DNA of 64,000 bases from Trypanosoma brucei. Lineage: Eukaryota. How positions within the stretch are numbered: the first letter of the stretch is position 1; every line of letters begins with the position of its first letter. This document shows, piece by piece, positions 10,818-14,514 of the stretch. The translations under genes were made by a program, and so were the position numbers. The notes under the pieces were generated by a model, which was given only the letters and a program-made list of their open reading frames with translations, ran no database searches and was not told where the DNA came from. The stretch spans positions 1,728,001 to 1,792,000 of the forward strand of contig CM000207.1 of the NCBI GenBank assembly GCA_000002445.1. Reading direction: 5' to 3'.

Positions 10818-11643
10818 ATATGTGTGTGAAGGTGTGGAAAATTTGAATCAACGTGTCGTTGCTGCTACGTGCATCTTCTTGTCTTTCTTCCCCCCTTTCC
10901 CTTTTACTTTCATGATGTTAGCTTCAACATGCCGACCCGCTTTAAGAAGACACGCCACCAGCGTGGCTCGACATTCTGCGGCTATGGTCGCGTCGGCAAG
11001 CACCGCAAGCACCCTTCCGGTCGTGGTAACGCCGGTGGCGAGCACCATCACCGCATCAACTTCAGGAAGTACCACCCCGGCTACTTTGGCAAGTGTGGGA
11101 TGAATCACTACCACAAGAAGAAGAACACGACATGGAAGCCAACAATCAACCTGGACAATCTGACGAAGCTGATGGCGAAGGACGAGGCCATGAAGGCCAA
11201 GAAGGGTGAAGCCCTCCCCGTCATTGACCTACTAGCCAACGGCTATTCGAAGCTGCTTGGTAACGGCCACTTGCAGGCACCGTGCATTGTGAAGGCCCGT
11301 TGGGTGAGCAAGCTTGCCGACAAGAAGATCCGCAAGGCTGGTGGTGCTGTGGTGCTACAGGCGTGATGTGGACAGACGGTCCACTGAGGCAATCTTTTTT
11401 TCATTTCTGTGTCTGTGTTGTACTAACTGAGTCTACGTTGTTCAGCATATGTGTACTTTTGTCTCTTGAGTGCTTTCTGTGAACTCACCGTACACTGACC
11501 ATATACTTTCTTTTCCCCATTACTGCATGCCGTAGGTTAGTGTAGATCGAGTTGCGTGTGTGGAGATGACAGGTGATGTTCGGCCGTCCCTGCTATTAAT
11601 TGTTTTTGCTTCAGCGTTCATAACCATGCTGAATGGTGCTGTT
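10818..11643 (+). repeat. Segmental duplication unit A, copy 1 (RPL27A plus flanks plus the first 78 nt of the downstream membrane-protein gene)
   Basis: It is identical, apart from a few point differences, to 13669-14502. The left boundary is at gacgagagatatgtgtgtgaagg and the right boundary inside the next CDS at ...aatggtgctgtt. Confidence 0.85.
10929..11366 (+). CDS. RPL27A: 60S ribosomal protein L27a (uL15), copy 1
   Basis: MPTRFKKTRHQRGSTFCGYGRVGKHRKHPSGRGNAGGEHHHRINFRKYHPGYFGKCGMNHYH is the uL15/L27a signature. The track ORF 10869 begins in a pyrimidine-rich leader; the true ATG is at 10929. Confidence 0.9.
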   Translation: MPTRFKKTRHQRGSTFCGYGRVGKHRKHPSGRGNAGGEHHHRINFRKYHPGYFGKCGMNHYHKKKNTTWKPTINLDNLTKLMAKDEAMKAKKGEALPVIDLLANGYSKLLGNGHLQAPCIVKARWVSKLADKKIRKAGGAVVLQA

Positions 11644-13251
11644 TCTGATCAGCCTTTTGCTATGGATGGGTTTGTCACTATGAAAGTGGAAGTGGTAGCG
11701 AGTTCTGCTTCGAAACCTGATGCGACGAAGCTGAGTAATCTAATGATTTCCGGTAATATAAATTCAAGTTACCCCCTCAAGGTTAGTTGGTTAACTCTGG
11801 GTGGTGGTGCTGTGGACGTGTACACAGAATCTGGATACGCAGTTGTTGGCGTGGATGGACACTGTAAAGTGAATAAACATCCTGGGAACAACAGCGAAGT
11901 TATCTTGTGGGATTCTCTTCGTGCCATACTTGCTGCTAACAATTATACAGTTAATCAGACCGACTTATTGGATCGTGGGTTAGACTTAGTATCGTATTCG
12001 CTTCCGCTCAATCTTAAGATTCCCTCTGAGTATGGTGGCAGCGGATCCGTGGAGACGTATTCTGTCGAGTACTATGTGCTGAACACGTGGACCGTGAACC
12101 ATGACGAGGTCGATGAGTTCCCTGTGAAGCTTTTGTTGAAGTCCGCAAAGGGAGAACAAATTTTGTTTACGTTTTTTGATTTCAGCAAGGACACCTTGAA
12201 TATGTCCTCGTTCGAGTTCCCGGAAAGTTGCACGAAACTGAATGACAAGGCGGGGAACCACAGTGCTGGGGAAGACGACGGCAATAACCAATTGGACGGT
12301 AAATTTATGCCGCGACTCCCCCCGGAGTTCAGTGCCTACATCCAAGTCATTGCGCCTGAGGAAAAGAGGACGTGGACGGTCAGCGAGCAATTTAGCGAGA
12401 GCAAAAAATTTTCACGATCAACTGTGGTAACCAGTGTCCCCAATTCTGGTGGGCAGGTGGCAGTGTATGATTGGTACACCTTGGGAAAGTACCAGATCTC
12501 ATATTTTCGCGAACAAAGGAAGGTGGGCTCGACTTTGAAGTCGCCGTTATCCAAAGATCTCCGGGATTACCTTTTTAAGGACTTTGATGTCTGCAGAAAA
12601 GCTCATCTGGGCATCAACGTAACAGCGAGAACGTCAAGTGCGCTCATGCTAAACTCTGTTGATGCAGTACCTGTCTACATCGGTACCCAAAAAGTGCGTG
12701 GGATTAATTGCAAGGTGTGGGCGGCTACTGTGTCCGGTATTCGTGTGAGGTGGTATTGGACGGAAAAGCAGGTGAACGCATTCGAGAATACAACAGAGGG
12801 TGGTCACCACTTGTTACTGCGAATGATTGTGGAAGGTATCGGAACATCCCCATATTTTGCTCACCACCCCTTCGTTGCGCAGGAAAATTTGTTGCCGTCT
12901 CAGTACCACAAACGGGCGTGCGCATGGCTCAACCCTGTGGATCCCACCTGTCGGGGAGGGCACCGTCGTTTCAAGTACATTTACGACGTTTTTTCTTTTG
13001 TTGATTTTTTGGATAGGGAAGCAGAGCTTCCTGACTCCTGCATGTCTTTCAGAGCCCCTTCTGTGTCTTTGCCAAGCGGATTGAATGATACTCTGTCGAG
13101 CACCAGAGTGCTCGTGTTTCTCTTTCTCTTCTCCATTACCTCTGCCACAATGGGTGGCTTTGTTACGTGGTGCTTTATGTCTTCAAGAATCCGTCGGTTG
13201 AAGGTCGACTTCATCAATGCCGGAAGAAATATTGTGGCGCGTCAGTCGTAA
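11566..13251 (+). CDS. Hypothetical type I membrane glycoprotein (signal peptide, large lumenal/extracellular domain, C-terminal TM and short basic tail)
   Basis: The ATG is at 11566; the track's 11560 start is a GTG. The N-terminus RPSLLLIVFASAFITMLNGAV is signal-peptide-like. There are at least 10 N-x-S/T sequons. The C-terminus LVFLFLFSITSATMGGFVTWCF is followed by SSRIRRLK. Confidence 0.55.
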   Translation: MTGDVRPSLLLIVFASAFITMLNGAVSDQPFAMDGFVTMKVEVVASSASKPDATKLSNLMISGNINSSYPLKVSWLTLGGGAVDVYTESGYAVVGVDGHCKVNKHPGNNSEVILWDSLRAILAANNYTVNQTDLLDRGLDLVSYSLPLNLKIPSEYGGSGSVETYSVEYYVLNTWTVNHDEVDEFPVKLLLKSAKGEQILFTFFDFSKDTLNMSSFEFPESCTKLNDKAGNHSAGEDDGNNQLDGKFMPRLPPEFSAYIQVIAPEEKRTWTVSEQFSESKKFSRSTVVTSVPNSGGQVAVYDWYTLGKYQISYFREQRKVGSTLKSPLSKDLRDYLFKDFDVCRKAHLGINVTARTSSALMLNSVDAVPVYIGTQKVRGINCKVWAATVSGIRVRWYWTEKQVNAFENTTEGGHHLLLRMIVEGIGTSPYFAHHPFVAQENLLPSQYHKRACAWLNPVDPTCRGGHRRFKYIYDVFSFVDFLDREAELPDSCMSFRAPSVSLPSGLNDTLSSTRVLVFLFLFSITSATMGGFVTWCFMSSRIRRLKVDFINAGRNIVARQS

Positions 13252-13668
13252 TCGATTGCTGCGGTAGGAACAACCGCATAATTAGTGTGCTGAATATGGT
13301 GAGATCCCTGTGAGAATAATGGTAAGGGCTCGTGGCGCCACTGATGTTTGGGTTGCTGCCGTTAGTGTTGGATATCAACAACAGGATGTGGGACGAAGGA
13401 GTTAGTGAAACGAACAAGTCAAAGAAACAACGACTTCCCCCCCTCGGACATTGCGCATCTTTCTTTTCTTTGCTTTACTCAAACTCGAACAGACGAAATG
13501 AAAGCGATAACACGAAGGAGAAAGGATGGAACTAAGAGGAGGTAGGGTAACGTTTAGGCTAAAAGAAACAACGTGGCGAAGGGTTATGTGCTTCGTGAGG
13601 TATTGCTATAACGGATCCATTTATGGTCTTCTTTCTGTTCTGATCAGTGTTAATTGCTATATCCTTCA

Positions 13669-14502
13669 GACGAGAGATATGTGTGTGAAGGTGTGGAAAA
13701 TTTGAATCAACGTGTCGTTGCTGCTACGTGTATCTTCTCGTCTTTCTTCCCCCCTTTCCCTTTTACTTTCATGATGTTAGCTTCAACATGCCGACCCGCT
13801 TTAAGAAGACACGCCACCAGCGTGGCTCGACATTCTGCGGCTATGGTCGCGTCGGCAAGCACCGCAAGCACCCTTCCGGTCGTGGTAACGCCGGTGGCGA
13901 GCACCATCACCGCATCAACTTCAGGAAGTACCACCCCGGCTACTTTGGCAAGTGTGGGATGAATCACTACCACAAGAAGAAGAACACGACATGGAAGCCA
14001 ACAATCAACCTGGACAATCTGACGAAGCTGATGGCGAAGGACGAGGCCATGAAGGCCAAGAAGGGTGAAGCCCTCCCCGTCATTGACCTACTAGCCAACG
14101 GCTATTCGAAGCTGCTTGGTAACGGCCACTTGCAGGCACCGTGCATTGTGAAGGCCCGTTGGGTGAGCAAGCTTGCCGACAAGAAGATCCGCAAGGCTGG
14201 TGGTGCTGTGGTGCTACAGGCGTGATGTGGACAGACGGTCCACTGAGGCAATCTTTTTTTCATTTCTGTGTCTGTGTTGTACTAACTGAGTCTACGTTGT
14301 TCAGCATATGTGTACTTTTGTCTCTTGAGTGCTTTCTGTGAACTCACCGTACACTGACCATATACTTTCTTTTCCCCATTACTGCATGCCGTAGGTTAGT
14401 GTAGATCGAGTTGCGTGTGTGGAGATGACAGGTGATGTTCGGCCGTCCCTGCTATTAATTGTTTTTGCTTCAGCGTTCATAACCATGCTGAATGGTGCTG
14501 TT
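13669..14502 (+). repeat. Segmental duplication unit A, copy 2
   Basis: See copy 1. The offset is 2859 bp. It contains a second RPL27A and a truncated remnant of the membrane-protein gene start. Confidence 0.85.
13788..14225 (+). CDS. RPL27A: 60S ribosomal protein L27a (uL15), copy 2 (identical protein)
   Basis: It lies 2859 bp downstream of copy 1 and encodes an identical 145-aa product. The flanking UTRs are also duplicated. Confidence 0.9.
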   Translation: MPTRFKKTRHQRGSTFCGYGRVGKHRKHPSGRGNAGGEHHHRINFRKYHPGYFGKCGMNHYHKKKNTTWKPTINLDNLTKLMAKDEAMKAKKGEALPVIDLLANGYSKLLGNGHLQAPCIVKARWVSKLADKKIRKAGGAVVLQA

Positions 14503-14514
14503 GCTGGCGTGTGA
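14425..14514 (+). pseudogene. Truncated duplicate of the 5' end of the 11566-13251 membrane-protein gene (first 26 codons, then divergence and a stop)
   Basis: 14425-14502 is identical to 11566-11643 (MTGDVRPSLLLIVFASAFITMLNGAV). It then reads AGV-stop where the parent continues SDQPF... This is the duplication breakpoint. Confidence 0.55.

Follow-up and report, generated by a model that had tools for sequence, protein, structure and literature searches.

Two near-identical RPL27A genes flanking a membrane-protein gene in Trypanosoma brucei: an old pair under gene conversion, with a probable copied RNA-processing cassette and a stub transcript

On chromosome 9 of Trypanosoma brucei, two near-identical copies of the ribosomal-protein gene RPL27A lie on either side of an unrelated membrane-glycoprotein gene (here called X), and the downstream copy is followed by a short open reading frame (ORF), the stub, that repeats the beginning of X. 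This locus raises two questions: whether the pair arose by a segmental duplication that bracketed X, as the original prediction from the sequence had it, and whether the stub is a functional product or a leftover. We examined the locus within a window of 64 kb (64,000 nucleotides of contig CM000207.1), in which position plus 1,728,000 gives the Tb927_09_v4 (chromosome 9) coordinate. This offset was checked against annotated genes: Tb09.211.2620 (1736856-1737443) coincides with the ORF at 8856-9443, and the end of Tb09.211.2680 (1749203) with position 21203. All features of the locus described below are on the + strand, as are the large ORFs of the window, which is expected within a polycistronic unit. 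Our answer, to which we assign a probability of roughly 0.7, is that an ancient RPL27A pair has been kept identical by gene conversion, that a whole cassette was copied from one gene onto the other in the T. brucei lineage, and that the stub is a non-functional by-product.

Base-by-base comparison of the window with itself at an offset of 2859, together with blastn against the window, delimits a unit of 838 bp at 10810-11647 that recurs at 13669-14506 with three mismatches (10872, 10880 and 11644; 99.6% identity). Two copies spaced 2859 bp apart had been predicted and were confirmed, but the unit is longer than the 830 bp first proposed. Each copy contains an RPL27A coding sequence (CDS; 10929-11366 in copy 1 and 13788-14225, annotated as Tb09.211.2650, in copy 2) for a 145-aa protein of the uL15 family, which matches the Pfam entry Ribosomal_L27A (PF00828, E=9.2e-15, score 55.3 vs a cut-off of 21.5) and has collinear 145-aa orthologs in every species compared. 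Not only are the two proteins identical, as had been stated, but so are the CDSs. Both edges of the repeat are abrupt in the offset comparison. No similarity above noise was found past either edge (blastn with word size 7; tblastn of X against 14507-15208), which argues neither for nor against a decayed full second copy of X, and blastn found no third copy of the repeat in the 64-kb window.

The 3' edge of the repeat falls at nt 82 of the X CDS, in codon 28. X itself occupies 11566-13251, exactly as predicted, although it encodes 561 aa plus a stop rather than 562 aa, and only nt 1-82 of its CDS are inside the repeat. The original prediction had recognized this sharing but counted 78 nt; the mismatch at 11644 is a TREU927-specific T in copy 1, and the intact X of T. 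b. gambiense has Ala27, as does the stub. The breakpoint was also rightly placed within the X ORF, where the identity tract ends, and on realignment copy 2 does reach the 5' end of X. The stub ORF is present at 14425-14514 as described, with 29 codons and a stop (MTGDVRPSLLLIVFASAFITMLNGAVAGV), and is in effect the X signal peptide followed by 2-3 new residues.

One explanation of such a structure is a collapsed or mis-joined repeat in the reference assembly, and a join of this kind does exist in a T. equiperdum contig, where sequence from upstream of copy 1 leads across an N gap into copy 2. TREU927 and T. b. gambiense nevertheless agree in this structure and junction, and T. equiperdum has the downstream junction too; because these genomes have the junction in common, it is not an assembly artifact. 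The copies moreover differ from each other at 10872, 10880 and 11644, and an independent transcript map puts unique RNA downstream of the junction. We regard an artifact as barely conceivable. The T. equiperdum join itself (CZPT02000078.1, L002 2058-2067) is a 10-N scaffold join that runs from upstream of RPL27A copy 1 into copy 2, with the repeat collapsed. A longer T. equiperdum repeat that would extend into RPL23 was considered and rejected, as it is only apparent and reflects the scaffold join across the N gap. The assemblies of T. theileri, T. vivax and T. congolense also break at the RPL27A repeat.

The age of the arrangement was addressed by synteny, using orthologs of APC2 as anchors and fetching the DNA upstream of them. 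In T. brucei, APC2 (15209-17521), a cullin-like gene with Pfam TPR_ANAPC2 and Cullin domains, lies downstream of the second RPL27A copy; its protein is 100% identical to that of T. b. gambiense DAL972 (FN554972.1, which we take to be the chromosome 9 record). In Leptomonas pyrrhocoris the order is two RPL23 genes, RPL27A, a gene for a 676-aa protein, RPL27A and APC2, and the 676-aa protein is the ortholog of X (E=5e-50). T. theileri has the same order: a 3.4-kb contig starts in RPL23 and carries RPL27A and X, and its last 95 nt overlap at 100% identity the sequence just past the assembly gap that precedes the second RPL27A. In T. congolense, RPL23, RPL27A, X and RPL27A follow one another (repeat period 2873 bp) until the contig stops, 159 nt into the copy-2 CDS; the APC2 ortholog is not annotated. 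In T. cruzi two RPL27A copies stand next to each other in tandem (period 647 bp) upstream of APC2, and the T. grayi locus shows one copy. For X, tblastn gave no match within the 22-kb loci of T. cruzi and T. grayi, a result that speaks for these loci only.

By parsimony, the sandwich of RPL27A, X and RPL27A was in place before the Leishmaniinae and Trypanosoma diverged, and the T. cruzi/T. grayi side later lost X here. As the order RPL27A, X, RPL27A, APC2 is common to several genera, the pair is ancient. An origin of the arrangement in a segmental duplication that bracketed X, an unrelated gene, is therefore not supported, since T. congolense, T. theileri and Leptomonas pyrrhocoris have the same order. 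The linkage of X and APC2 may extend to an uncultured kinetoplastid, in that a homolog of X and a homolog of APC2 are each found on an ENA contig of 56,947 bp.

Despite this common arrangement, RPL27A paralogs group by species. Within each genome the paralogous CDSs are 99.8-100% identical (99-100% at third codon positions), whereas orthologs from different species are 79-88% identical (58-74% at third codon positions). When T. brucei is compared with T. congolense, the non-coding parts of the unit are only some 50-55% alike, yet inside either genome the two copies of the 5' part agree at 99-100%. Five sites of the repeat (10839, 10888, 11212, 11458 and 11548) distinguish T. b. brucei from T. 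b. gambiense, each of them changed in both copies, and the divergence of the repeat between the subspecies (0.7-0.8%) is about that of unique spacer (0.6%). All three marks of concerted evolution are thus seen at this locus: a duplication that preceded speciation, paralogs more alike than orthologs, and substitutions common to both copies, the last of these read from a T. b. gambiense assembly that was reference-guided. The identity of the RPL27A copies is the result of continuing gene conversion and not of youth. The suggestion that comparison with related species would date the duplication consequently led elsewhere than expected, to an ancient pair whose near-identity comes from continuing conversion.

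These comparisons also bear on a recent duplication or unequal crossover, under which a single RPL27A stood beside X until a 0.8-kb piece with RPL27A and the 5' end of X was newly duplicated downstream in the T. brucei lineage. A unit that is sharp-edged, 99.6% identical and without residual similarity outside is what such an event would leave, and the spacer between RPL27A-2 and APC2 is 983 nt in T. brucei vs 283-370 nt in T. cruzi, T. grayi and T. theileri, the greater length being consistent with added DNA. But a second RPL27A also occupies the corresponding position between X and APC2 in T. congolense, T. theileri and Leptomonas; T. cruzi has two copies and, like T. theileri and Leptomonas, carries the second one upstream of APC2, so that the event would not be specific to the T. 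brucei lineage. Because each difference between the subspecies is present in both copies, identity cannot serve as a measure of age. A de novo recent origin of the RPL27A pair is already contradicted by these data. In another variant the old second RPL27A copy was lost and then re-created, which is indistinguishable from a long conversion tract. Taking the variants together, we consider a recent duplication unlikely.

The species differ in how far the homogenized tract reaches beyond the RPL27A CDS. The identity tract is the CDS plus or minus 3 nt in Leptomonas, extends from -4 to +36 in T. cruzi, and comprises the CDS and about 51 nt (at 97%) in T. theileri; outside the T. brucei/T. congolense lineage, identity is thus limited to the CDS and up to approximately 50 nt. 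In T. brucei it runs from -119 to +281. In T. congolense it starts at -141, and the contig ends before the 3' edge. Allowing for two insertions in T. congolense, the two 5' edges (-141 and -119) align within about 5 nt. Extension of the homogenized unit into the untranslated regions (UTRs), the spacer and 82 coding nt of X is a feature of the T. brucei lineage, and its 5' side is common to T. brucei and T. congolense, where the alignment of the edges indicates that the extended unit may predate the split of these two species. The stub has no counterpart in the T. theileri, Leptomonas or T. cruzi loci.

A neighboring tandem pair, RPL23 (9629-10091 and 10240-10702; CDSs 9671-10090 and 10282-10701; period 611), contrasts with the whole-cassette identity of the adjacent RPL27A pair. 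The RPL23 copies are identical only from -42 to the stop, and the published poly(A) sites give them 3'UTRs of 65 vs 91 nt.

In T. brucei, the 838-bp unit is a complete RNA-processing cassette. Copy 1 contains the polypyrimidine tract and predicted acceptor of RPL27A, its CDS and 3'UTR, a spacer with the polypyrimidine tract (11506-11518) and AG acceptor (11534-11535) of X, and the first 112 nt of the X mRNA. The stub was predicted to retain its upstream processing signals, and the duplicated tract (14365-14377) and acceptor (14393-14394) do lie inside the second unit, where the acceptor was mapped by Kolev et al. (2010). The major polyadenylation site of Tb09.211.2650 is at 1742288 (Kolev et al., 2010, Table S13), which is position 14288 of the window and gives a 3'UTR of 63 nt; by identity with copy 2, the poly(A) site of RPL27A-1 is expected near 11429. 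The duplicated acceptor is 107 nt downstream of the RPL27A-2 site, with the polypyrimidine tract between them. Trans-splicing in trypanosomes is coupled to upstream polyadenylation (PMC2936537). Since the whole cassette is duplicated, both RPL27A genes make identical mRNA, and together they account for approximately 204 RNAs per cell (Kolev et al., 2010, Table S6).

RNA sequencing data had been proposed as the place to look for a spliced-leader (SL) site and a poly(A) site at the stub, and a published transcript supplies the answer. Tb9.NT.64 (1742395-1743043, or 14395-15043 in the window; 648 nt; 2.0 RNAs per cell in procyclic forms; Kolev et al., 2010, Table S7) starts exactly at the duplicated acceptor, 14395 being the first base after the AG at 14393-14394. 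Its first 112 nt are the 5' end of the X mRNA (30 nt of 5'UTR and 82 nt of CDS). RNA reads cover 93-99% of Tb9.NT.64 in both life-cycle stages, at 63-73 reads per kilobase per million (rpkm), and ribosome footprints cover only 18-26% of it, or 117-170 nt (Vasquez, 2014). The transcript has the characteristics of a trypanosomatid mRNA, with the shared 112 nt making short reads at its 5' end ambiguous. The Tb9.NT.64 RNA is real, because its unique 3' 540 nt are covered by RNA. Between T. b. brucei and T. b. gambiense, the spacer at 14507-15208 differs by 1.6%, 2-3 times the divergence of the repeat or the X region (0.6-0.8%), a level that fits weak constraint on the body of Tb9.NT.64.

X encodes a type-I membrane glycoprotein with a LolA-like domain. 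The protein has a hydrophobic, signal-peptide-like N-terminal segment, a single C-terminal transmembrane segment at approximately 515-537 and nine N-X-S/T sequons. Its sequence matches, at 100% identity, a hypothetical protein of T. b. brucei TREU927 that carries a precomputed PF25898 assignment; our Pfam scan of X itself returned only DUF4412, below threshold. At E<=1e-3, X has 41 homologs, reaching as far as Cryptobia (bodonids), in a library of representatives clustered at 50% identity, where a missing T. cruzi entry is no proof of loss. A profile search from aligned X homologs brought up just two proteins, both known before, its other candidates having probably been crowded out by low-complexity words. 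Both family homology and type-I topology place X among the kinetoplastid membrane proteins with a LolA-like domain. The Novymonas homolog is annotated as ESP9, which in T. brucei is Tb927.9.11480, a transmembrane protein of the surface proteome encoded on chromosome 9. X is probably ESP9.

We propose the following history. An RPL27A pair would have flanked the ESP9-like gene since before the Trypanosoma/Leishmaniinae split, with only the 438-bp CDS being homogenized in most lineages. In the T. brucei lineage, the whole RNA-processing cassette of the upstream gene (tract and acceptor, 5'UTR, CDS, 63-nt 3'UTR with its poly(A) site, 107-nt spacer and 112 nt of X mRNA) would have been copied as DNA onto the downstream gene. 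An ectopic conversion or one-ended repair event may have started in the shared CDS and run past it, from copy 1 to copy 2, with the tract ending in a putative non-homologous or microhomology join at codon 28 of X. We favor this direction because the shared 3' segment is contiguous with intact X, and it is supported by the homology between the N-termini of X in T. brucei and T. congolense. The 838-bp unit would have been homogenized ever since. Today, the duplicated acceptor would set the poly(A) site of copy 2, through coupling of polyadenylation to the next downstream trans-splice site, and its use would launch the orphan Tb9.NT.64, in which the 29-codon stub is the first ORF.

Retroposition was also considered as a source of the second copy and rejected. 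Besides 112 nt that precede the predicted acceptor, the unit takes in the 107-nt spacer and a portion of the following mRNA, and there is no A-tract at 14288. Since spacer DNA that is absent from the mature mRNA lies in the unit, the cassette was copied as DNA and not by retroposition.

Several points weigh against the history proposed here. The mechanism is not readable from the sequence, as the recipient's pre-event sequence is gone and there is no demonstrable microhomology. The T. congolense contig ends inside copy 2, which bounds the age of the stub only loosely. The T. vivax contigs, with only 248 and 223 nt of flank and nothing in common between these flanks, weakly suggest that this species has neither the extension nor the stub, but the suggestion hinges on the end points of short contigs. 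The two repeat copies of T. b. gambiense are 100% identical over all 838 bp, through the equivalent of 11647, in a reference-guided assembly, and this identity may be inflated if the assembly collapsed both copies. Finally, footprints assigned to the stub cover the ORF completely (100%) at 130 per nt, and its ribosome release score is 31 (Vasquez, 2014); taken at face value, these figures argue for translation.

The last point deserves attention. The stub has been listed both as the small ORF (sORF) Tb9.NT.64_1 [31-117] (Ericson, 2014) and as the candidate CDS getorf_Tb927_09_v4_+_17137 (Vasquez, 2014). A functional stub could yield a 29-aa, signal-peptide-like micropeptide from Tb9.NT.64, or the RNA could be a decoy for whatever factors the ESP9-like mRNA binds at its 5' end. 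The transcript with its SL acceptor and poly(A) end in both life-cycle stages speaks for function, as does the position of the ORF, the first in the transcript and 30 nt from its 5' end, and the release table of Vasquez (2014) counts 448 footprints in the ORF vs 2 in the next 48 nt, with 108 vs 15 RNA reads for the same intervals. Against this, the intact gene matches 82 of the 90 nt of the stub ORF and 112 nt of the transcript exactly, so that both the footprints and the mapped 5' end may come from X mRNA. Read placement used bowtie2 in local mode, with no description of how multi-mapping reads were treated (Vasquez, 2014); with 82 of 90 nt shared, the stub footprints would be equally expected from X reads. 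The 117-170 nt covered by footprints roughly match the shared segment. RNA density falls 3.8-fold just past the junction, which points to a contribution from X, and only 18.6% of reads are in frame (Vasquez, 2014).

No stub peptide is reported in the table of Vasquez (2014), where the peptide columns read -1, and Tb9.NT.64 is missing from the conserved-ORF and mass-spectrometry lists of Kolev et al. (2010, Tables S8-S10) and Ericson (2014, Additional files 3-5). The lack of a counterpart in T. theileri, Leptomonas and T. cruzi likewise counts against a functional stub. A further objection is that a 29-aa chain would terminate before leaving the ribosome for co-translational targeting. Because the stub is absent from other genera, lacks peptide evidence and belongs to a low-abundance RNA, we rate function as improbable. 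Somewhat less credible again is the idea that acceptor and stub have been kept for a reason, whether as a micropeptide or by titrating factors of the ESP9-like mRNA 5' end, with the sandwich conserved across trypanosomatids for regulation; if true, the output of a surface protein would be linked to that of a ribosomal-protein cassette. Most probably the stub is a relic without function, left as a by-product of cassette copying.

Two other gene families in the window show comparable patterns. A PEX11-family pair (25551-26457 and 28941-29843; ORFs 25704-26435 and 29094-29819) is near-identical from 153 nt upstream of the ATG, save for a diverged patch at approximately 26131-26239 in the CDS. These copies are about 2.6 kb apart with no ORF of at least 90 aa between them, and T. 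grayi has a RING-finger gene between its two. A MATE-transporter array (55866-61454) consists of copies at 56038-57549 and 57853-59364 (period 1815) and a third, more diverged copy at 59967-61454. The first two are identical from approximately 170 nt upstream to just past the stop, and mosaic patches of divergence at approximately 56157-56212 and 56838-56882 suggest the boundaries of conversion tracts. Separately, Kolev et al. give the start of the 195-aa ORF at 8856-9443 (Tb09.211.2620) as misannotated, the splice acceptor lying inside the ORF at 8965; its counterparts (an ORF in T. congolense and genes in T. cruzi, T. grayi and T. theileri) are 145-148 aa long and start at the internal MSQLWVK methionine.

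For trypanosomatid duplicates in general, near-identity is uninformative about age: this pair goes back at least to the Trypanosoma/Leishmaniinae split and yet has the look of a new one. When part of a gene is copied together with its splice acceptor in a polycistronic genome, an mRNA-like RNA automatically results. An entry in three catalogs, of novel transcripts, sORFs and candidate CDSs, is here a duplicated 5' fragment, and similar cases may inflate lists of the "small proteome". The locus is of modest interest, chiefly as a warning for sORF and ribosome-profiling catalogs. It also provides a natural test bed for the control exerted by a downstream acceptor over poly(A) site and UTR in a ribosomal-protein gene with high expression.

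The transcript and its ORF had already been cataloged: the stub itself is the entry Tb9.NT.64 (Kolev et al., 2010), Tb9.NT.64_1 (Ericson, 2014) and getorf_Tb927_09_v4_+_17137 (Vasquez, 2014). In those tables of the catalogs that were consulted it stands as a list entry, with neither its origin as a duplicated fragment nor multi-mapping flagged, and that origin appears to have gone unremarked there. The processing geometry is that of canonical coupled trans-splicing and polyadenylation, with the poly(A) site at 14288, the polypyrimidine tract and the acceptor at 14395. Unlike in usual coupled processing, the acceptor at 14395 serves no gene and only ends the RPL27A-2 mRNA and yields an orphan RNA. 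The stub resembles other eukaryotic relics of partial duplication in that the 5' portion of a gene, its expression signals intact, remains where a copied segment ends. It differs from relics elsewhere in that a promoter-less, polycistronic system transcribes and processes the fragment automatically, and its expression is for this reason no evidence of function.

The closest parallel for the RPL27A pair itself is found in the T. brucei gene arrays analyzed by Jackson (2007; BMC Evol Biol 7:54, PMC1855330), whose duplicates group by species, with their homogenization attributed to gene conversion. Such arrays may be interrupted by unrelated genes, and two are inserted in Tb24; the study makes no mention of ribosomal-protein genes. 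Like these arrays, the RPL27A duplicates group by species rather than by position and are interrupted by an unrelated gene. In Jackson's interrupted example, the separated copies gained unique UTRs and kept their orthology with the copies of other species. The RPL27A copies, in contrast, still evolve in concert although they are 2 kb apart (4.3 kb in Leptomonas) with an unrelated gene between them, and in T. brucei the homogenized tract takes in the UTRs and part of the neighboring gene. The locus is a fresh instance of well-known phenomena, in which old duplicates are kept identical by gene conversion.

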